IMG/VR virus record: IMGVR_UViG_3300011471_000001
Span: 1 to 64,000 of that record
Length of the DNA stretch: 64,000 nucleotides
Reading direction: 5' to 3' (one strand)
From: an uncultured virus (IMG/VR IMGVR_UViG_3300011471_000001)
Taxonomy: Duplodnaviria; Heunggongvirae; Uroviricota; Caudoviricetes
Below, piece after piece: positions 3,057-38,978 of the stretch; position 1 is the first letter of the stretch; each line of letters starts with the position of its first letter. A program made the position numbers and the translations under genes. The notes under the pieces are model-generated. The model saw only the letters and a program-made list of their open reading frames with translations, was not told the DNA's origin and searched no databases.

Positions 3057-3281
3057 ATGACCGATAAAGCACGCGATCCACGGGCTTTAAATTCAGTTAA
3101 AGGAGCCGCCCCCGCGACGGCTCAGATTCAGATGCGCGTCATTCCCGAAGTTAAGAACCGGTACGTCGCGCAGGCGCAGCGGGAAGGGATGAAACTGTCA
3201 GAATGGATACAGCATCACCTCGATGCTGTATGCCAGTCGGCGGGCGAGGCAAAGCAACAGGATAAGAACACCAGTGATTAA
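3057..3281 (+). CDS. Ribbon-helix-helix-like small DNA-binding protein
   Basis: IQMRVIPEVKNRYVAQAQREGMKLSEWI matches the RHH/Arc pattern; GAGG RBS. Confidence 0.6.
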   Translation: MTDKARDPRALNSVKGAAPATAQIQMRVIPEVKNRYVAQAQREGMKLSEWIQHHLDAVCQSAGEAKQQDKNTSD

Positions 3282-3944: not shown

Positions 3945-4066
3945 TTACCAAATGATGCATATAACGGTTAAACAATACACAAACGAATTAACTAAACTTG
4001 TTACTTTATGAGCCATTAAGTTAAATGGCCTTAATACCTGCTTATCGCTTTCAAAACGGAATAGTA

Positions 4067-5854: not shown

Positions 5855-6023
5855 GTTAACCGGTATCTTGGAAATGTATAACGTTCACTATAGTTAGCAG
5901 ACTTACATTTTATGTACTGGCGCATACTGGTCTACCTTCCAAAGCCGTGTGCGCACACGTTGCCGTTCTAACGTCCATGAAAGTTAATTTTTTAAAAAAT
6001 AAATGCGGCAGAGCCGCTATTCT

Positions 6024-8790: not shown

Positions 8791-8925
8791 AGAGCAAAGG
8801 CTAATGGCAACATCAATCAATAAACATCCGGTCAGTAAATTACCAAATCCTTAGATTTAAACAATTCATTTAATCGCCAGCCTGAAGCATTGTTACCTGC
8901 TAATTCTGGCAGGTACTAACGCCTT

Positions 8926-9720
8926 TTATTCCGCTTTTTGCGGTTCAGTCGCTGCCGCTGCGGCCACCAGCTCCGGCTGAGGCTGTGGGGCGTCGGTTTT
9001 CGCCTTTGCCAGCAGGATAGTGCGCTGCAGCTGCGCCTTTTCGATGGCCTCTTTCACCATATCAGCATCCAGTCCGACAACCGCAAACTTGTCCAGGCCT
9101 TCCATGCGGAAAAGACTCGTTTCCGGTGCCATTGCCTTCAGGGCTTTCTCGTTCTCAACTGTGATGTAGATCAGCTGTGGCTCGGCCTCTGCGCCGTCCG
9201 GGATATACACATAAGCATGCTGACCAACGCCTAACGCCTGGAGGAACAGAACACACACGGCCAGAGGCAGAGAGGTATGCGCCACGCTGACATGCTGTAG
9301 CCTGCCGGTCAAAACGCCGTGCAGCTTCGCGTTATGAGGCATGTACGGGCTTACCGTCTCCACGCGCCACATGCCGGTAAGCGAACCGTCCACAAACGCC
9401 TCGCCGGTAATGTTCATCGACATCTGACGCATGAGCAGCTGCGCAAAGCTCTTATCCAGCGTCGGAGCCAGAGGGAGTGCGCCGGTCTTCTCATTGATTG
9501 CGTCTACCGCTTCCTGACGTTTGGCGGCATCCTCTGGCAATTCCTGGCTGTGGAACAGCCAGTAGCGCTCATTTTTATTAACCCACACAGTGACGCCTTC
9601 AACTTCCTCCGGCTCAAAGCCCAGCGCAGCCACCAGCGCAATTTCGAGGTTTTCCGGAGCGATCTCGTTCTTCTGATTGACCTCAATGGCCGTGGTCTTG
9701 CTGATAATGTATTGAGTCAT
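8926..9720 (-). CDS. Hypothetical protein
   Basis: 264-aa ORF in an operon downstream of dut. Confidence 0.7.
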   Translation of the reverse strand: MTQYIISKTTAIEVNQKNEIAPENLEIALVAALGFEPEEVEGVTVWVNKNERYWLFHSQELPEDAAKRQEAVDAINEKTGALPLAPTLDKSFAQLLMRQMSMNITGEAFVDGSLTGMWRVETVSPYMPHNAKLHGVLTGRLQHVSVAHTSLPLAVCVLFLQALGVGQHAYVYIPDGAEAEPQLIYITVENEKALKAMAPETSLFRMEGLDKFAVVGLDADMVKEAIEKAQLQRTILLAKAKTDAPQPQPELVAAAAATEPQKAE

Positions 9721-13354: not shown

Positions 13355-13437
13355 ACATGGCTACTGATTCTGTCTATATTCGCCCCCATTAAGTCCAGAG
13401 AGACTTGCACCGCTCATTAATTTTTTGGAATACAATT

Positions 13438-14517
13438 ATGCCTAACTTCAGCGATGTAGAATTTGAGAAGCGCTATAAACATTTTCTACAGGTACAAAAA
13501 GAGTGGCTGACTCTCATCACGGACAACCAGATTTTCATTGATAAAAACGCTATGGGCGAAGAATGCCGCCCGATCGGCTTTATCACTGACAAGAAGACCT
13601 TTCAGCGCGCAGAGCACCTACTGGCCGACTGGCAGAGCTTTGCCGACCTGGCAGAAGAGAAACGTCAGGCGCGTTCTATCGCGATTACGACTAACCTTTA
13701 CCTGCCGGTGCCGACCCTTATCATTGAGCCGAAGCACGTCACTATCAACCGCTTCCGCGCTACGGCGACCGCGAACCACACCCGCGAAGATATCCTGAAG
13801 CGTTATGAGAAGCAGATCGGCAAGCTGCGCAAGGTTCCGTTCGCTGCCGGTGCCATCATGTCGCTGGAAGACGAAATGAAGGCGTTTGAAGCCGCAGCGC
13901 CAGGCGCAATGTACCGCGCCCGCACCAGCAACTACTCTGACATTCAGGTGACTGCGCGCTATACCGACGACAAAAAAGACGAGGGCGAATCGTTCCGTTA
14001 TGGCGCGCACGGCATGCTTATCTACGGTGAAAACCTGAACAAAGAGCGTGATATCAGGCTGAACGTTAACAGCAACGGCGGTTACACGTCCTCTTACGAC
14101 GCGATTTCCCCTGTGGCATGCTCAGTACTGCCGAATGCCAAGCTGTACACGATGGAAGACGTGGATTACAGCAAGCAGCTGGCCGCTCAGCGTTCTTCTG
14201 TGGCCTATACGGTGAACACGCGCCGCACTCAGTTTGAGACCAGGGCAAAGGCGAAGATTGCGAAGGCAAAGGACGCGCAGGAAGCACGTCTGTTTAAGGC
14301 TGAAATCGACGAAAACCGCGACCTGCTGGAAAAGCTGGAAGCATACGACTGGGCGCTGCTGGAGAAGAAGGTTGCTGCAGGCGATACCGAACAGCTGACC
14401 ATGCCGGAGATCCGCAAGCGCTACGGTGGCGAAGAGCCACGCGCCGGAAAAAACATGCGCAACATGTACAGCCTCCTGCGCGAACTGGAAAGTAACCTGA
14501 AAAATCAGGGCAAATAA
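13438..14517 (+). CDS. c1: C1 primary repressor homolog
   Basis: Segments LYLPVPT, YRARTSNYSD and SSYDAISPVAC..PNAKLY align with recalled P1 C1; position between pacB and the lox site matches P1. Confidence 0.8.
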   Translation: MPNFSDVEFEKRYKHFLQVQKEWLTLITDNQIFIDKNAMGEECRPIGFITDKKTFQRAEHLLADWQSFADLAEEKRQARSIAITTNLYLPVPTLIIEPKHVTINRFRATATANHTREDILKRYEKQIGKLRKVPFAAGAIMSLEDEMKAFEAAAPGAMYRARTSNYSDIQVTARYTDDKKDEGESFRYGAHGMLIYGENLNKERDIRLNVNSNGGYTSSYDAISPVACSVLPNAKLYTMEDVDYSKQLAAQRSSVAYTVNTRRTQFETRAKAKIAKAKDAQEARLFKAEIDENRDLLEKLEAYDWALLEKKVAAGDTEQLTMPEIRKRYGGEEPRAGKNMRNMYSLLRELESNLKNQGK

Positions 14518-20103: not shown

Positions 20104-20502
20104 TCAGCGGAGGCTTCTCAGGAAGTGGCTGACGGTCGGGGACCACAAAGTTACTATGTCACTTCCTAACTGCTGGATGACTGCGCTGTAATCGCTTAAT
20201 GGCACATTCTCCTCTGCATCACCCATAAAAATCAGTTGCTGAGATGTACCGGCTTTCGCTGCGTCCACGCTGTAGGCAAATCCGGGAGTAGAACCGAAAT
20301 GCTCCACCAGCTGCTCTGCCCGCCATGCGAAACGCACACCACAGTTCTTCCGGAGCTCGAGCGTCACCGTGCCGCCGACGAGCATAGCCGAAATTTCTGT
20401 ACCGGCACTAGGATAACTGCGTTTACAGGAGACAGACGTAATTTGGCAGTTGGCAGCGTGCCAGTCCAGCGCTGGCAGGTCACTGATTTTAACTGTTTCC
20501 AC
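20104..20502 (-). CDS. Hypothetical protein
   Basis: GTG start overlapping the upstream stop codon. Confidence 0.5.
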   Translation of the reverse strand: METVKISDLPALDWHAANCQITSVSCKRSYPSAGTEISAMLVGGTVTLELRKNCGVRFAWRAEQLVEHFGSTPGFAYSVDAAKAGTSQQLIFMGDAEENVPLSDYSAVIQQLGSDIVTLWSPTVSHFLRSLR

Positions 20503-21086
20503 TACACCAGCCTCCAGTCGCTTGCGAGAAGATCCGTTGAGGCTGGCGCCCAGTCGGAAACCGTTAGCTTTTCGGTATCAATGAGCAAAAGCTGGGGCAT
20601 CTGCGTTACGGCCACATCTTGGCTGCAATCAAAGTAGCGGGCCGGTACGCCATACATATCTGATCCATTCAGTGCTGCGCGTGTCAGCCCTCTGGTGAGG
20701 CGCAGATGAACCCCCTTCCCCCATGCTGCCCGCGCCACCTTGCAGCCCTCTGACAGCCACAGCTGCGCGACGGCCAGCGGTGCTTGCTCCTGCCTGAAAC
20801 TCAGTTCCCCGGTATCAATCATCGCTTCGTTGCGCAGGATAAGATCATTCAGCTTAATCAGCGCGGCACAGGCGGCGTGGTTCAGGGTTTCGCCAAAACC
20901 GGTCATTGTCAGGCCGCTTTTGCTGATAACGGCTGCGTACCCTTCAGTTTTGGGCTCAGACGTCTCTGTAATGGTGTATCCCAGGCGGGCAATGACAGCC
21001 AGCAGCGCCATGTAATCGCCTGCATAGTCGGCTTCTGCGTCTGCAATCATGGCGATCGTTGCATTCAATTGTTGAGCGGTCATCAT
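20502..21086 (-). CDS. Protein with a C-terminal DUF2829/Tad2-like domain
   Basis: EGCKVARAAWGKG...WAPASTDLLASDW motif. Confidence 0.6.
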   Translation of the reverse strand: MMTAQQLNATIAMIADAEADYAGDYMALLAVIARLGYTITETSEPKTEGYAAVISKSGLTMTGFGETLNHAACAALIKLNDLILRNEAMIDTGELSFRQEQAPLAVAQLWLSEGCKVARAAWGKGVHLRLTRGLTRAALNGSDMYGVPARYFDCSQDVAVTQMPQLLLIDTEKLTVSDWAPASTDLLASDWRLV

Positions 21087-21088
21087 TA

Positions 21089-21337
21089 TCAGTAGCCCCG
21101 TTTCTGCTTGCGCTTCTGCGCTGCTTGCCTGCGTTTCTTCTCTGCGGCCCAGTGCTGCTGAGCTTCCGCAATGCTTGTGGCCAAATGACGCATTCCCCGT
21201 TCGATCTCTTCCTGTATGGGTGGACGGGTCTCATCCACCAGCAGCGCTCTCACCTGCGGGACCGGAACGGTCGGCGGACGACGGGCTACCCAGCTGAGGC
21301 TTCCCATAATTGCGCCCATCAGTGCGATCTTCTTCAT
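21089..21337 (-). CDS. Small basic hypothetical protein (MKKIALMG...)
   Basis: Internal ATG at 21337; stops 2 nt before the next gene. Confidence 0.45.
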   Translation of the reverse strand: MKKIALMGAIMGSLSWVARRPPTVPVPQVRALLVDETRPPIQEEIERGMRHLATSIAEAQQHWAAEKKRRQAAQKRKQKRGY

Positions 21338-21476
21338 GCGTTTTCTCTTCCTGCAGGCGTGCCGAATCCCCGGCAGGCGCCGGTGATTAAAGTTCACCTG
21401 GTTAAATCCGGCGTGGGATACGCACGGCGATAATTTGAAGCCTGCGCCGGCGCGTGGCCGGGTGGCTGTAATAGCA

Positions 21477-21577
21477 TTGTGCTGACCGGATTCGAACTGG
21501 ATACCGTCCGTCTGTCCCCATCAGGCCTTAAGGCTGTTACATGGAACGGCGGTTGCTTCCGTTAAGCTACAACACAA
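21477..21577 (-). ncRNA. tRNA-like RNA with an enlarged anticodon-arm hairpin
   Basis: Acceptor TGTGTTG/CAGCACA, TAGCTTAACGGAAGC D-arm, GTTCGAAT T-loop, ~50-nt hairpin in place of the anticodon arm. Confidence 0.5.
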
Positions 21578-21799
21578 CGGTAAAAGCACATTGCAGGCGC
21601 TCTTACCTGTTGTCCTGTCTCAGCCCGCCACCAGCTGCGCGATAAGCCATTTGTGACCGGCAAACAGTCCGGCATTCAGAAGGCAGTGAAACATGACAAA
21701 CTGCATGGCTCTGATGGTCTTTGTGTAAGTGCTGTCACTCATGCGCATTGCGTCCGGATTGGCTGGCTGTCTTACCCTGATCATGCCAGAAATAGCGTC

Positions 21800-22189
21800 T
21801 CAATATTCTGGTAAATAAAAACCGCGAATACGTGTTGCTAATAGCTTATTGCAAAGGGATATTGCCCCTCTCTGCGCCAGCATCAGCTGTGACTCTACGG
21901 GCGATAATTCCTGAAAATGAGGTAAGTCCTGCATCATTTTAATCATCTGATCTTCCATATCTGACAGTATTTTCAGTTCCATAATGGCGCGCTGCTGATA
22001 CGGTTTAAGATGTGAAACATCGTCCATAACGACGTAGCTTTCAGCCAGTTCCTGCTCAGTTACAAGGGCGATACAGGATCCATTTTCATCCCATAATGCG
22101 TATCTGCAAAACCCACTATGTTTTTCTATGCGCTCAATGGTTAAAGGCTGCGGTCTTGCTAAAGCGAGACGATTTTTACCCTGACCCAT
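21800..22189 (-). CDS. Hypothetical protein with a C-terminal helical domain (crAss001_48-like)
   Basis: GAGG RBS; PYQQR..E...F..L...E..LM.AQ...L..RI..F pattern. Confidence 0.5.
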   Translation of the reverse strand: MGQGKNRLALARPQPLTIERIEKHSGFCRYALWDENGSCIALVTEQELAESYVVMDDVSHLKPYQQRAIMELKILSDMEDQMIKMMQDLPHFQELSPVESQLMLAQRGAISLCNKLLATRIRGFYLPEY

Positions 22190-22427
22190 ATATCCCTCTC
22201 ATAAACGTTTATGGTGGCCGGTGCCATACCCGGCAAATAACCTCTCAAGTGACTGGTCAACCTGGTTACTGGCGGCTTTAACCCCTGTGTACGCGACTGA
22301 AGAATCGGGGGCCAGTCTTGCGATCGCAGCAGCAACTGCGAATGCACCACAACGGATAGAGCACTGACCATTCCTAGTCCAATGGCGCTCTACGCAAAGC
22401 ATCAATGCTCTTTCCTGTTGGTATGCC

Positions 22428-22556
22428 TTATTTGCGGCGCTGCTTCTTCCTGCCGCCTCTTAACGCCCTGATGAATGTCTCGATGGCATAGATGGCCACC
22501 AGCGCGTAAATCACGGTGAGAAATGGGTGCTCTGCAGCAAATTCTGATAACGACAT
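22428..22556 (-). CDS. 42-aa single-TM peptide with a basic tail
   Basis: MSLSEFAAEHPFLTVIYALVAIYAIETFIRALRGGRKKQRRK; AAGGA RBS; too short for the ORF track. Confidence 0.55.
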   Translation of the reverse strand: MSLSEFAAEHPFLTVIYALVAIYAIETFIRALRGGRKKQRRK

Positions 22557-23505
22557 AATGCGTCCTTTGTAGAGGAATGCTGTCTCTTCCAGCTGTCAGA
22601 ACTAATCGCCCAGGCGCTCAACCTGCAATGACGTTATCCCGCTGGCTGGCACATTCTGTGTTGACCGGATAACCAAATAGACGAAAAGGAAATAAAACGC
22701 CCAGGCTCCGCACCCACATGTCCCAAATGCCCCACTTTCAGCCACCAGCAGGGATCGCTGGCTTGTCGTTACTGGCCGGGTTCAATAGAGTTGCGGTGAC
22801 CGTTTCCCGTTAACGCGGTTGTTCACTGAGGCGGGACTTAAACCCGCTTTGCTTTCGCAGCCCATCGCTGACCGCCCGTGTTAATTCACAGGCAAGGCTT
22901 CCGCCCCGTGGATTCCGGATCCACAACTCCTACGGTGTATTAAAGCGATCACCACAACGGCCGAGAACACTGAGCAACCACGCACCGGATGCTCGTTTAA
23001 GTCACCCTTCAGTGTCCTCGCCGTTATGGGCTGGTCTTTCCCAGCAGCCACGGCGTGTTGAGGCCTGCCGATACCCTGCCCCGCCACCAGCCAAATTAGC
23101 CAGTAAACAGGGCATCGCCTGGTGTTGACGTGTAGTGCATGGGGGGCTGGTGCCTCCAGCTGTCCGATACGGAACCTACGGACGGGCATAGAACAGGAAT
23201 TTGCACACCGAGAGGTGATTGTTCCGGCCCGCGTGCGCATAGCCGCATTCCCCCATTTGTGAGCGCGCTGACAGAGGTAATCTTTCGCCAAACGCCAGGT
23301 AAAAACGTCAGATGCACCAGCGCGCTCACAAATAAAGATCCCTTACGAGGATCAGGCGGGAGCATGTTTAAGCCTCATGGAGCATTCTTTGCGCGGGTTA
23401 GTCCAAGACCGCGTTCACTGCCATGACAGGAGGGGCTACTTGCCGTTCACCCTTCTCATAACACGCCTGGAAAAGGTAATAAACCAGGTGCGGCCCGTTA
23501 CGAAC

Positions 23506-23569
23506 TGGTGCAGGTTGACGGAATTGAACCGCAGACAATGGAACACTCTACCCACTGAGCTAAACCTGC
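23506..23569 (-). ncRNA. 64-nt tRNA-like RNA lacking an anticodon arm, ending in CCA
   Basis: GCAGGTT-TA-GCTCAGTGGGTAGAGT-(11 nt)-TGCGGTTCAATTCCGTC-AACCTGC-ACCA. Confidence 0.6.
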
Positions 23570-23954
23570 TGAATACTTGCCGGTGCATACCCGGCGCGGA
23601 CACTTAGGTATCTGGTCAACCTGTCCGCTTGCGTCACGTATGAGGTCAGGAAACCTCGCCAGATTTGCAGTGCGTTTGCCTCGCTTGCTAAAGCGTTTTC
23701 CCCGTTTCAGCCGTCAGCACACCCTGATGCACTCACGGCTGAAGCTGAAAAAAAAGCCCGGAAACTACCGGGCCAAAAACCCTACTACACACAGCAAAGC
23801 CTACTCTGGAATAGACTCTGATTTGTGAAAAAAGAGCGGATTAAACAGACAGTTATGATTAATCCGCCAAATGCCTATTATGATTTTTGCACGGAGCCTT
23901 AAAGCTCTTGTCAGCGGGGAGGAATGTACACAAAACGGAGTAATGAAGCAATGA

Positions 23955-23978
23955 AAATCTAAGAAAACTCTTAGATTT
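23955..23978. promoter_or_regulatory. Palindromic operator AAATCTAAG-N6-CTTAGATTT ahead of the RNA-rich early region
   Basis: Perfect 9-bp inverted repeat of the operator half-site. Confidence 0.65.
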
Positions 23979-23998
23979 TCAAAGCAAGAAAGAAGGGG

Positions 23999-25288
23999 TT
24001 AGCGGCGTTTTACTTTGGGGTTTCTGATGTTCTCTATGTCGCCGTTCGCCTGCGCCCACTTTATGCACCAGCTGTTCACGGCAGCGCGAATTTCATTCAC
24101 AGAGGCCTCACTCAGCCCCTTCACTTTTGCCAGCTCGTCAGGCAACTCACCACCAGCATCGGCAACCGTCTCATACCCGGCCTTTGTCAGAGCATTAAGG
24201 ATGCGTGTCGGTATGACCAGCTCGGAAACAGGCGCAGCTTTGCCGTCCAGAATGCGTTGATGAAGACGCGGGAAATCCTGCGCCAGGCGCTTCATGATCC
24301 GTGTGTGCAGCTCGTCATTGATAGCCGTGTCCCACATCGGCGCAAGCTCAGGCAGCAGGCGGAAGACAGGATTGCCCCATATTCCCGGCACCACGTCCAT
24401 TGCCAGCATCATCGCGGTACGGATCTGGAAGTGGAAATCAGCCGTCTCGATAGACACGTCCCGGACACCGTGGAAAACGCTCAGGCCAAAGTGGAAGTTG
24501 TAGATGTAGCAACCCACGTCGCCAGAGCCATCCGGCAGCTGAAGGAGGAACTGCTGCACATCTTCCCGGCCATCGTGAAACTCGACACGCTCCTTCAGGT
24601 GGTTATAAAGAGCGGTAGTCTTCATCAGGTCATTGGCTGTTGCGGCGCGCTGGCGGCGCTCTTCTCCGACAACCTTATCCGCGATGTTGAGTTTGCTCTG
24701 TAACTCCTGCCGCTTAAGGCTGTCTTTTTTGCGATCGGCGCGCTGCTGTGAAATGGTTTTGTCACGCTCATTCAGGTCTCGCGCCAGGCGCTCAGGATTC
24801 TTGCGTCGATACTGTTCAAACTCCTGTGAGACAGAGGTAAACGCCAGCTGCGCGGTGGTCAGGGCAGACCTGATACCCTCAAGCTGATTCTCAGCATTGA
24901 TTACGCGGTTGTCCGCCTCCAGCACACGCTGAGTAGCCGCTTCACGGGCCTCTTCAATGGCGTTCTCGGCATCGAGACGAATTTTCGTTACCTCGCTGAC
25001 CAGTGCGGACTGCGCACCCAGCTGCTGCTGTACCTGCTCCAGTGCGTCTAATAGCAGGTTGTAGGTGTCAGTTTCATGATTAAGGCGCATGCGAAGATCG
25101 ATCTGGATCTGCTCCAGAGCGTTCGTGCAGTTATCAAGAAGGCGCAGCTCCAGGTCATCAAGCGTTAGGCGTTTACGGATGGAATTAAGCTGGCCGTAAG
25201 CGGTGACAAAGGCCTGGTGAAGAACTTCATCATCGACGTTGCATACAGGGAGATTTTGCAGCTGCTGGAGTGGAGCGAGTGTAGTCAT
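23999..25288 (-). CDS. Coiled-coil protein with a C-terminal RpoA alpha-CTD-like/HhH domain (possibly PmgS-like)
   Basis: Long heptad region; PVSELVIPTRILNALTKAGYETVAD..ELAKVKGLSEASVNEI. Confidence 0.65.
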   Translation of the reverse strand: MTTLAPLQQLQNLPVCNVDDEVLHQAFVTAYGQLNSIRKRLTLDDLELRLLDNCTNALEQIQIDLRMRLNHETDTYNLLLDALEQVQQQLGAQSALVSEVTKIRLDAENAIEEAREAATQRVLEADNRVINAENQLEGIRSALTTAQLAFTSVSQEFEQYRRKNPERLARDLNERDKTISQQRADRKKDSLKRQELQSKLNIADKVVGEERRQRAATANDLMKTTALYNHLKERVEFHDGREDVQQFLLQLPDGSGDVGCYIYNFHFGLSVFHGVRDVSIETADFHFQIRTAMMLAMDVVPGIWGNPVFRLLPELAPMWDTAINDELHTRIMKRLAQDFPRLHQRILDGKAAPVSELVIPTRILNALTKAGYETVADAGGELPDELAKVKGLSEASVNEIRAAVNSWCIKWAQANGDIENIRNPKVKRR

Positions 25289-25344
25289 ATTGAGAATCAG
25301 ATCCGCGTGTAATTTGCGGCGGATGATAACTCGAAATTAACCAC

Positions 25345-25367
25345 TGTCTAAGGCTTTTCTTAGATTT
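25345..25367. promoter_or_regulatory. Operator TCTAAG-N6-CTTAGA
   Basis: Intergenic, upstream of the gene starting at 25288. Confidence 0.6.
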
Positions 25368-25429: not shown

Positions 25430-25726
25430 TTACAGCAGTTTCAGCGCCGTTACGGCTATGGCGGCCACAGTGATAATCATCAGCACGTTCAGCAGTACAG
25501 ACGGCACCTTGATCTCGCCTGTCTCATACTCTGTCTGCGTCATCCTGCCCAGGTAGCTGTGCGAGATCAGCACTGCGTTTTCGTCAAAGCTAAGCGTAGC
25601 CCGGACGTTCTCAAGCGTCTGGCGGGAAATCTGACGTGTGGCCAGCTGGACGATTCCGGATCTCATCTTCCCGTTGTCACCCATATAGCAGACAGTATGG
25701 TAGTGGTATGGCTTATCCTGGCCCAT
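25430..25726 (-). CDS. Hypothetical protein with a C-terminal TM anchor
   Basis: Coupled to the upstream gene; hydrophobic C-terminus. Confidence 0.6.
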   Translation of the reverse strand: MGQDKPYHYHTVCYMGDNGKMRSGIVQLATRQISRQTLENVRATLSFDENAVLISHSYLGRMTQTEYETGEIKVPSVLLNVLMIITVAAIAVTALKLL

Positions 25727-26244
25727 CAGCTGATAACTACCCAGTCGCTGACGCGCATATCGTTAATGCTCAGTTCGTGTATCTCAACGCCGCCGTCCGG
25801 TCGGGTCAGTATCAGCACGTCACAGCCTTCATGCTCCTGCTCAAGCGACACAAAGTAACCCACCGCCCACGCTTCCCGGCGCATCAGCAATTCCGGATCC
25901 TCTTTCATCTTCAGCAAGGCGCGGTCATAACTGCACGTAATGGCACCGATTCCAATTTTGCTCAAACCTTCGATCTGTGCCGTAGTCATGCGTCCGCGTC
26001 CTTCTGTTAATGATTTTCTCAAGATGTAACTGATCCCCTTCACGCCGCCGAAATAGTTCAGCTGGCGGTTACTCATGCCGCTGCGCGACATAAGCTCCTG
26101 CTTCGGTACTTTGAAAATGCCGACGTCCATAGCCATGTCGGCAAAAACCGAAAGCCCACGGCCCAAGCCGTCGCGCGTCTTTTTACGGCGCGCATACTGC
26201 TCAAAGGTGGGGCATCCAGTAAAAAACTGCGCGTCAAAAAGCAC
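25726..26244 (-). CDS. Hypothetical protein
   Basis: Operonic ORF with DUF2829-like DMRVSDW C-terminus. Confidence 0.5.
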   Translation of the reverse strand: MLFDAQFFTGCPTFEQYARRKKTRDGLGRGLSVFADMAMDVGIFKVPKQELMSRSGMSNRQLNYFGGVKGISYILRKSLTEGRGRMTTAQIEGLSKIGIGAITCSYDRALLKMKEDPELLMRREAWAVGYFVSLEQEHEGCDVLILTRPDGGVEIHELSINDMRVSDWVVIS

Positions 26245-37097: not shown

Positions 37098-37695
37098 GCC
37101 ATGACCTTTTGCTGTGTGTAACCCAAAGTACCATTCGGATGGATGCCATTCGTGATTGTCCTTAACCCGTCATAGCGGCAGACGTATCTATGCAAAATTT
37201 ATATAACAAACTTTTTCACATTAGCCCGTCTGCGTTAACAAAACTTATCACTATCTTTCTGAATTAAAAAACACTTTTAACGGACTGTATTTTTGACCTG
37301 TACAGATAAAAGTTTTTTTGCAATGGAATTAAAGTCAGTAAATGAATCTAACTCACTGATTTTCGTCCGAGCTTAGATAATGAGTTGATAGAATATACCT
37401 TTAAGTTAAGATTTATTACCGGTAAAAAAAACCAACAGAAACTGAGGTAAATATCATAATGTTGCTGGATATCCGTTTAATGATCAGTTTTTATGTATAA
37501 TCTACCGTTAATTCAATCAAAATAATTGATCTTCCATTTCCGACTGTTAATCTCAACAGGAAATAATACATAAACGTTATTATTTTACTGTCTTTTGACA
37601 GATTAGCAGCACAAAAAAAGCCGCACTCGGATATTCCGGTGTGCAGCTTCAGATAATTATCTTATGGAAAAAATGCCCTGCTGTGTCAGGCGCAG

Positions 37696-38157
37696 CTAAT
37701 TGCTCCACTCATATACAAAGTGTTGCACCGCAATGACCTTCAGGCCGCTCCTGATTTTCACAACCTGTTGCGGACCAGCCTGCTCCTGTGCGATCGCCTT
37801 CTTCATCAGTGGCGCTGCAAGCTTAACAGCCGTCGCTTTAACAGGCTGGCATGTCTGCGTCGCCATCGCCTTCTTTGCTTTGGGCGCAGGCCTCTTTTTA
37901 GGTTTCTGACTGAGCTTAAGCAACCGCTCTTTGCGAGAGTCTTTTTCTTCAGGATTCTGGATTTTTAAACATACAGGGCATCGCTCAGAATTACTGTGAT
38001 GGCCCAGTGCCACAGTCATTGCCTGTTGCGTGGTGTAGAGCGTGCCGATAAATATCCGGCTTTCAGGCGTTTTTGGGAGAAGTTTACAGCCTTCACGGTG
38101 CAACAGAGTGCCGCTTTCATAGTGAACGGAGACGTAGTATTTCTTTGCTTCTAACAT
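37696..38157 (-). CDS. HxxxC...CxxC zinc-binding protein with a Lys/Ala-rich tail (paralog B)
   Basis: YYVS..LLHREGC..LP..RIFIG..CPVC; AAGGA RBS. Confidence 0.6.
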   Translation of the reverse strand: MLEAKKYYVSVHYESGTLLHREGCKLLPKTPESRIFIGTLYTTQQAMTVALGHHSNSERCPVCLKIQNPEEKDSRKERLLKLSQKPKKRPAPKAKKAMATQTCQPVKATAVKLAAPLMKKAIAQEQAGPQQVVKIRSGLKVIAVQHFVYEWSN

Positions 38158-38385: not shown

Positions 38386-38589
38386 TTAGTGTAGCAGCGA
38401 AATAACTTTCCAGTCAGCTGAAATAATGTCGTCAGGAGTAGGATCATAAAAAGACAGTACGCCAGACTCGCTCATGACAATAAACTGCATCTGACTGTCG
38501 GCATTTGTTTCAGTGAATACATGAACAGGTGTATCACCCCACTTGGCACGACGACAGATATTACTTTCAGTCTGGCTGATAGCTGTCAT
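38386..38589 (-). CDS. DUF2829/Tad2-like small protein
   Basis: CRRAKWG...YDPTPDDIISADWKV; ATGA-coupled to a leader ORF. Confidence 0.55.
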   Translation of the reverse strand: MTAISQTESNICRRAKWGDTPVHVFTETNADSQMQFIVMSESGVLSFYDPTPDDIISADWKVISLLH

Positions 38590-38642
38590 GGCGTGGTTAA
38601 AACCTGTTGCTGCTGGGATGGCGTGTCGGGGATATCAGACAT
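38586..38642 (-). CDS. 18-aa leader ORF in the icd position (MSDIPDTPSQQQQVLTTP)
   Basis: AGGGAG RBS overlaps the C4 target b2; stop overlaps the next ATG. Confidence 0.45.
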   Translation of the reverse strand: MSDIPDTPSQQQQVLTTP

Positions 38643-38694
38643 GAAATGCTCCCTGTGCTTTGAGATGCGTCACAACGGGAGCTTCCAATCTCCG

Positions 38695-38778
38695 GGTGGT
38701 GACGTTGACAGGGTTGGAACTACCGGTGCACAAGAAAACCGGCCTACCCGAAGGTAGTCCCACCAACGCCACCATTGA
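38695..38778 (-). ncRNA. C4-type antisense RNA (immI-like), boundaries approximate
   Basis: Segments TTCTTGTGC and GTTCCAAC are complementary to a1/b1 upstream and a2/b2 downstream; overlapping Ash-type reading frame (GRPVF..GSSNPVNVTT). Confidence 0.7.
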
Positions 38779-38978
38779 TACGCCCTGATTCATCCGGACG
38801 TGGTAGCGCCGAAGGCACTATGTGCCCGTTCTTATGCTTTGGGACGGTTCCAATCCTGACCGCTTAACTCATGCGGCGCGCACACTAAAGCCCCCATGCT
38901 GATAAATTCAATATGTCTTATGTGAAATTATACACTGGTCATTAGATCCAGATGCGACTGAAGAATCGCTAACCTCAT

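Follow-up and report, generated by a model that had tools for sequence, protein, structure and literature searches.

The dicBF operon of the Qin prophage of Escherichia coli (ydfC-dicF-dicB) is a repressor-controlled early operon with micro-open reading frames (micro-ORFs), and its messenger RNA (mRNA) is cut by ribonuclease (RNase) III to a 190-nucleotide (nt) species and by RNase E to the 53-nt DicF (bioRxiv 10.1101/2023.04.14.536235, in its available part). The ban-operon leader of P1 and the transfer RNA (tRNA) region of D6 combine an operator, a ‘dicF-like region’, long stems, cloverleafs and tciA/B/C, and include decoding tRNAs (Asn, Thr, Ile). STnc100 and PasD are described as related prophage small RNAs (bioRxiv 10.64898/2026.05.13.724894, available portion), the former having been detected in vesicles by polymerase chain reaction (PMC12370729, available portion), and RNase P is reported to cut C4 and CI RNAs as well as anticodon-less t-elements that serve as cleavage signals (accessible text of PMC5499578). 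The DNA analyzed here, the first 64 kb (64,000 nt, ‘the window’) of the 90.5-kb virus record IMGVR_UViG_3300011471_000001, carries a gene-poor island of 2.5 kb in which, judged from its sequence, a palindrome and a conserved predicted promoter are followed by three small ORFs and a series of conserved RNA modules with predicted folds. Likewise by sequence comparison, it belongs to the known dicBF/P1-ban leader type as a fresh variant, and its parts have known kin.

We favor, with a probability of roughly 0.6, the reading that this island is a conserved modular small-RNA cassette, expressed as a C1-repressed early precursor that host RNases III, P and E would cut into small RNAs and short mRNAs. 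Such processing is known for the homologous E. coli dicBF leader; the modules, their conservation, their pairing (in differing degrees), the homology to dicBF, P1 and D6 and the complement of an RprA seed at an 88-amino-acid (aa) gene are direct observations. All modules lie on the minus strand and, from the operator onward, are as follows.

23952–23981, no strand: palindromic operator-like site directly upstream of the −35 box, with perfect arms of 13 base pairs (bp)
23923–23951, minus: predicted sigma70 promoter TTGCTT-17-TACATT, below the scanner’s threshold
23747–23917, minus: first RNA, an RprA-seed small RNA with an intrinsic terminator (terminator 23774–23755, seed 23798–23784)
23703–23745, minus: hairpin after the terminator, 15 pairs, 2 of them with a double change (17 sequences)
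23575–23700, minus: scaffold with the first copy of the AGGTTGACCA arm and a GCCGG hairpin; it is homologous to the arm that precedes DicF in E. coli and to that of the P1 ‘dicF-like region’
23506–23569, minus: tRNA mimic 1, 61 nt plus CCA, with acceptor, D and T arms and no anticodon arm
23340–23505, minus: unnamed multi-helix RNA with a predicted kissing loop (TCAYGG with CCRTGA), common to lambdoid prophage leaders
23255–23333, minus: long stem whose interior varies, a predicted site of RNase III type; none of 275 cells is broken (12 sequences)
23139–23256, minus: STnc100/PasD-like cloverleaf (GCGGCTATGCGC...GGAGGCACC), a 7-bp acceptor-like stem on a 5-bp arm, with a variable middle
23065–23120, minus: long imperfect hairpin, z-score −4.9 with hand-picked ends, 1 double change
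22950–23050, minus: GGAAAGAC hairpin, then a long stem whose interior varies, a predicted site of RNase III type
22790–22958, minus: closed multibranch RNA of ~170 nt holding a T-arm-like hairpin (22847–22831); 2 of 58 pairs with a double change (9 sequences)
22575–22780, minus: patchy non-coding module ending in the second GAAGAGAC hairpin, mostly absent in L003, L011, L022 and L024
22428–22556, minus: gene for a 42-aa TciC-like membrane peptide, 36% identity over 33 aa to P1 TciC
22348–22422, minus: long stem corresponding to the RNase III stem of E. coli dicF, with an inferred cut near 22359/22358
22210–22351, minus: cloverleaf scaffold with the second copy of the AGGTTGACCA arm and a TGTGGTG/CACCATA acceptor-like stem
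21800–22189, minus: patchy inserted gene of 129 aa (PHROG 774, E value 5e-45), absent from most relatives
21620–21742, minus: conserved 40-aa ORF, annotated in relatives
21575–21612, minus: long stem directly before mimic 2, predicted RNase III-type site
21477–21576, minus: tRNA mimic 2, 100 nt, a long helix with a constant GACA bulge replacing the anticodon arm; no encoded CCA

Relatives were drawn from 21 IMG/VR loci anchored on pmgS, 7 plasmid regions and pattern scans; some records duplicate each other, and identical rows were counted once. Pairs were counted on hand-written structures, a ‘double change’ being a pair changed on both sides. In the GTDB pattern scan, 6 of 18 hits were real and 12 were chance matches. 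Pairing in this comparison favored the minus strand in 9 of 10 modules. The AGGTTGACCA arm is paired in 99.4% of cells, with a double change in 4 of its 10 pairs; corresponding values are 95% and 5/32 for the kissing-loop RNA (13 sequences) and 97% and 5/27 for mimic 2 (16 sequences), and the module at 22950–23050 has double changes in 6 of 32 pairs (15 sequences). In the STnc100-like cloverleaf, whose T-like arm was a selection criterion and was not counted as pairing evidence, all 63 acceptor cells are paired over 9 distinct end sets. The long stems retain both arms even where the interior has gained or lost sequence (−37 to +66 nt): a 37-nt interior deletion in L001 leaves the 23255–23333 stem intact, and the interior of the stem at 22348–22422 varies from −30 to +66 nt.

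In comparison with L024 and L025, four-fold degenerate sites of pmgS differ by 0.52–0.53 and the island’s own 42-aa ORF differs at 17 of 42 residues, whereas the arm, kissing-loop, cloverleaf and 170-nt modules differ by only 4–14%; this low divergence points to selection on the modules. Mimic 2 differs by 28–30% in the most distant Pantoea-type relatives. An earlier note on this DNA, made from the letters alone, had called the region dense in hairpins, and as a statement on stability this did not hold. In an unbiased 90-nt sliding scan no excess over background was found, with 3 of 25 windows (12%) in the region below a z-score of −2 against 11% of 615 elsewhere, and other blocks of the 64 kb scored lower than the region; separate z-scores obtained with hand-picked ends were not counted as proof. 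The case for the modules therefore rests on compensatory change and selection.

The two tRNA-like units of the earlier note are both found by the Rfam tRNA model, in a scan that the note had proposed as a check: mimic 1 (unit 23569–23509) scores 41.8 bits, over the cut-off, and mimic 2 (21576–21477) 25.6 bits, under it. Mimic 1 is paired in 99% of cells. ARAGORN returned no tRNA gene and called neither mimic, and its relaxed setting with introns gave noise. Both units possess the 7-bp acceptor stem, the D arm with GG and the T arm with TTCRA of a decoding tRNA, and neither has the 5-bp anticodon stem and 7-nt loop, which are missing in mimic 1 and displaced by the long helix in mimic 2. Thirteen of 30 records hold this allele in the mimic 1 slot, 15 hold another short-armed tRNA mimic and 2 are cut. 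In contrast to P1 and D6, the window has mimics only. A third mimic with an enlarged anticodon loop (ARAGORN ‘tRNA-Stop’) occurs at 3979–4062 of L005 and in L024, L025 and L129, inserted after the 170-nt RNA in a more distant Pantoea group. A further tRNA-like unit, with a 66-nt insertion in the anticodon arm, lies at 5866–5993 of L006 and at 3247–3373 of L038 and L045, and is annotated in L077 as a 129-nt tRNA-Met.

The stacked acceptor and T-like helices within a longer precursor, with the anticodon arm missing, are shared with C4, CI and plant mitochondrial t-elements; the window’s units bear no sequence relation to these, and their RNase P cleavage is a prediction. In E. coli the AGGTTGACCA arm stands just before DicF, between ydfC and dicB; the arm by itself is present in 4,414 of 5,426 E. 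coli genomes, and it is also the hairpin of the ‘dicF-like region’ in the P1 GenBank record. The E. coli order is long stem, arm scaffold, DicF and STnc100-like cloverleaf; of these, the long stem, the scaffold and the cloverleaf have homologues in the window. Counting the 190 nt back places the RNase III cut in the 3′ arm of the dicF long stem, 5 bases before GTTGTGG (±1). That stem and three of the four long stems in the window share the same ...CCGTTGTGG end, and the fourth overlaps the cloverleaf at 23256; each lies directly 5′ of a unit with an acceptor-like helix. By contrast with dicBF, the island lacks DicF and dicB, is four times longer, and has two arm copies, two tRNA mimics, the kissing-loop RNA and the RprA-seed RNA instead. 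A weak resemblance to DicF inside the 23255–23333 stem was considered and dropped, as Rfam gives it no support.

Like the leaders of this type, the island has the homologous arm, long stems and cloverleafs behind an operator, and it sits where D6 has its tRNA region, between pmgS and lpa; its operator sequence differs from those of P1 and D6. The D6 and P1 leaders (L138 5760–5720, minus; L139 1518–1622) also contain a short frame, ANDDLMMVAA-stop, absent from the window, which we take to resemble a transfer-messenger RNA (tmRNA) tag; against the Rfam permuted tmRNA model these leaders gave an E value of 0.15 only. With STnc100 (RF02076) and PasD the window’s cloverleaf shares the closing acceptor-like stem, the AAU with its hairpin and the GGAGGCACC arm, but it has its own stem sequences and middle, and the RF02076 model (gathering score 47) gave no match in the genome at an E value of 10.

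In all 40 distinct loci the two kissing loops complement each other, with one loop type in 27 and the second in 13. The kissing-loop RNA was found in 46 viral stretches, 24 of them not P1-like, and 20 of those 24 have a PKKS motif downstream that is presumably RecE-like; it had no match among GenBank phages and occurs in 6 of 5,426 E. coli genomes. An Asp-anticodon mimic in the kissing loop, suggested by a motif, was rejected for want of a matching stem. The 170-nt multibranch RNA was found only in this phage group, with 17 metagenome hits. The GGAAAGAC hairpins, of which the window has two, number up to seven along lambdoid leftward leaders (L039, L135) and matched no Rfam family; homology to phi80 nutL was dismissed because the annotated core, CTGTATCACCGG, is unlike them, and phi80 M3 RNA was set aside as a homologue, being annotated as a homologue of oop.

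These modules also turn up, differently arranged, in D6, P1, E. coli, Enterobacter and Leclercia plasmids and lambdoid leaders. Relatives, too, show a reshuffled arrangement with gains and losses of modules, and some have TerB and DUF3927 genes inserted. L014 illustrates how modules get lost and shuffled: it has a natural 1.36-kb island deletion (9332–9349) between two ...CCGTTGTG ends. A 20-nt inverted repeat (22824–22843/22995–23014) was discarded as its pairing is not kept in relatives, as were long ORFs of 136, 89 and 95 aa over 22881–23426, which suffer frame-breaking indels there.

Several other statements of the earlier note can be placed here. All strings that it quoted are present, namely the T-arm-like GCGGGTTTAAGTCCCGC (22847–22831, minus), the long stem with arms at 23256–23270/23318–23332, a 16-bp perfect inverted repeat, and the element formed by GCGGCTATGCGCACGCGG (23246–23229, minus) and GGAGGCACC (23157–23149, minus). 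Of the T-arm-like hairpin, T54, A58 and T60 are kept in relatives and TTC is not (loops TTTAAGT, TTTCACT and TATCACT). Credible ORFs are indeed few, with the amendment that the three of 42, 129 and 40 aa are real and occupy ~26% of the region: the 42-aa ORF and its ribosome-binding site are conserved in relatives, and the 40-aa frame and protein are kept in L001–L004, L008, L011, L024, L025 and L124, so that segment 21745–21612, considered as an RNA, is this ORF. Structural covariation, also proposed there as a check, appears as double changes in several modules and is lacking in the second scaffold and the last stem. The proposed precursor, processed to small RNAs and micro-mRNAs, remains the best interpretation and is partly borne out; of the regulatory or decoy roles suggested, a regulatory one draws sequence support from the RprA-seed RNA only, and none was found for decoys.

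The palindrome is longer than any other perfect palindrome of the 90.5-kb genome and is kept in 6 of the 8 relatives shown; another sequence replaces it in L024 and L028, which suggests another immunity group. TTG(C/A)TT and TGTACATT occur at the same spacing in all 8. The likely binder of the palindrome, by homology, is the C1-type repressor:

13405–14517, plus: C1-type repressor gene, 29% identity to D6 C1 over 90% of the query, E value 3e-33
25344–25367: second operator-like site, before the pmgS-like gene

Weaker operator-like sites with AAATCTAA half-sites precede gene starts at 8850 and 25344 of the window and at 69387, 76498 and 82725 of G000:C1.

The first RNA behind this promoter resembles the processed 3′ form of host RprA. 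The last 47 nt of RprA are described as a functional processed form (PMC9262595, in the part available). The two RNAs have 14 identical seed nt followed by an intrinsic terminator in common, the match being to RprA of the Pantoea host, which is present in 4 of 4 Pantoea host genomes; 1 of 500 shuffles reaches 14. The first RNA differs in having no RprA 5′ half, another terminator and a phage promoter, and it scores 26.9 bits against Rfam RprA (RF00034), for which the gathering score is 70. An Enterobacter relative matches E. coli rprA over 56 nt at 91%. Of 120 viral loci read that hold a 22-nt match to the RprA 3′ end, none has the host 5′ half, and 59 lie beside array motifs. The seed has a predicted counterpart elsewhere in the window:

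37108–37120, minus: predicted RprA-seed target site, perfectly complementary over 13 nt and located at −23 to −11 relative to the 88-aa gene (37097–36831)

This site lies beside the ribosome-binding site and is kept in 8 of 8 orthologue leaders (orthologues 54–100% identical); none of 7 other copies has it, among them L304 with an identity of 53%. Variation among the eight consists of A-to-G changes that allow G-U pairs, and in G012 one change in the site is matched by a compensatory change in its own seed. The match was noticed post hoc and is a prediction; we regard the site as a putative RprA-seed target that both the host and the phage RNA could use. The 88-aa protein is Cys-rich and has a 153-aa paralogue (37696–38157) without the target site; attempts to name it and the 129-aa protein gave no identity. 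A second conserved site, GCACGCAGCA, possibly pairing with the RprA seed, lies at 88265 of G000:C1 and also in G005, G007, G011 and G012.

Combining these elements, C1 bound to the palindrome would keep the promoter low in the lysogen. A partial stop at 23755 would yield an RNA of ~170 nt, whose RprA-type seed would repress the 88-aa gene and probably host RprA targets. On induction, RNase III would cut the read-through precursor in the four long stems, each just 5′ of a cloverleaf, RNase P would trim at the stacked acceptor/T-like helices and RNase E would also take part, releasing cloverleaf RNAs, tRNA mimics and short mRNAs. The mimics and cloverleafs may thus be cutting and stabilizing handles that carry variable loops and protect the messages of the three small ORFs.

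A number of observations weigh against this cassette model. In mimic 1 just 1 of 16 pairs has a double change, which is weak, and 27 of 500 shuffles reach its score; no double change was seen in the second scaffold (14 Pantoea-type sequences) or in the long stem before mimic 2 (11 sequences), the change of kissing-loop type may be one event, and double changes in general stem from few lineages. Both mimics carry changes private to the window copy that weaken the T stem. Folding stability does not exceed background, the minus-strand mean z-score of the sliding scan being −0.76 in the region and −0.32 elsewhere. A match to DicF (RF00039) was not obtained in the region. Little divergence is seen at four-fold sites of the 42-aa ORF (1–3 of 11–19), so the conservation may in part reflect transfer of the island from phage to phage. 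The terminator at 23755, 170 nt after the promoter, requires read-through, and no antiterminator was identified for it. As for the target, the 88-aa leader ranks only fourth of 243 ORF leaders by duplex energy, and the gene is absent from 5 of the 10 genomes searched. In G010 and G011 the site is present but a phage copy of the seed is missing, and G007 has the seed and lacks the gene; the site may therefore respond only to host RprA.

An unlikely alternative, if the best-placed one, is that the modules act in cis on an unprocessed early transcript, through antitermination, pausing, stability or translational control of the tad2-like, lpa and packaging genes, with no free small RNA except the first, terminated one. 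The position of the island between the operator and essential late-control genes, the early terminator requiring read-through, the repetition of GGAAAGAC hairpins after promoters in lambdoid leaders and the kissing-loop RNA near the start of many leaders would all suit such a role, but the shuffled order with its gains and losses of modules, the loss of 1.36 kb of island in L014, the mismatch between the GGAAAGAC hairpin and the annotated phi80 nut core, and the processing of the dicBF homologue speak against it.

Less credible still is the proposal that the tRNA mimics are counter-defense decoys that titrate host enzymes attacking the acceptor end or the elbow of tRNAs. Elbow and acceptor are kept and the anticodon arm is lost in two independent alleles of a single slot, mimic 1 encodes CCA, and a Tad2-like anti-defense gene adjoins the cassette; yet mimics with no anticodon loop cannot decoy anticodon nucleases, CCA is altered in L025, L026 and L129 and absent from mimic 2, and no partner enzyme was identified. 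The least probable explanation, a decaying D6/P1-type tRNA cluster of pseudo-tRNAs and leftover processing stems alike only through recent exchange, would account for the real tRNAs at this place in D6 and P1, the lack of a stability excess, the private destabilizing changes and the low synonymous divergence inside the island, but is already weakened by covariation, with compensatory changes across genera, and by shortened or lengthened arms whose lengths agree exactly between lineages that differ at half of their pmgS four-fold sites.

Homologues of C1, PmgS, Lpa, terminase, Ulx, C4 RNA and a partition ATPase (ParM) assign the record to the D6/P1-type phage-plasmids. The island’s best matches are Pantoea plasmids of 87–95 kb (10 records), and among GenBank phages it had no match. 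It is bordered as follows, with lpa beyond the downstream genes.

23999–25288, minus: pmgS-like gene, upstream border (PHROG 1660, E value 5e-110)
20502–21337, minus: 82-aa gene and Tad2-like gene, downstream border (Pfam PF11195, E value 5e-10; annotation of relatives)

Together, pmgS and the island are flanked by two genes with Tad2-like domains (25726–26244 and 20502–21086). Farther off, an immI-like region holds a C4 antisense RNA (38692–38779, minus) overlapping a 52-aa ORF (38635–38793), then a 67-aa gene (38386–38589). Searches of mainly openly accessible literature found no paper that describes the island, a copy of RprA in a phage, or tRNA mimics of phage-plasmids that lack the anticodon arm; the available parts of PMC6799933 and bioRxiv 10.64898/2025.12.28.696737 mention only tRNAs and tci genes.

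A broader view, which we offer tentatively and as one joint proposal, is that enterobacterial temperate phages share a shuffled library of RNA ‘morons’ on tRNA-like handles, in which the cassette’s copy of processed RprA would couple the lytic switch to a phage gene and to targets of host RprA. Under envelope stress the 88-aa gene would then be repressed by host RprA, with the phage supplying an RprA mimic on induction, and the anticodon-less tRNAs might either correspond, in prokaryotes, to t-elements or act as decoys of toxins that attack acceptor ends. DicF, STnc100/PasD and the P1 ‘dicF-like region’ have so far been treated as separate oddities, and the island presents them as exchangeable building blocks of a single kind of early phage leader. 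It allows direct tests of the predicted cut sites, of the kissing loop and of the pairing between seed and target proposed for the phage-borne RprA mimic. Should this mimic work as predicted, temperate phages would tap the host envelope-stress regulon through a copied seed.

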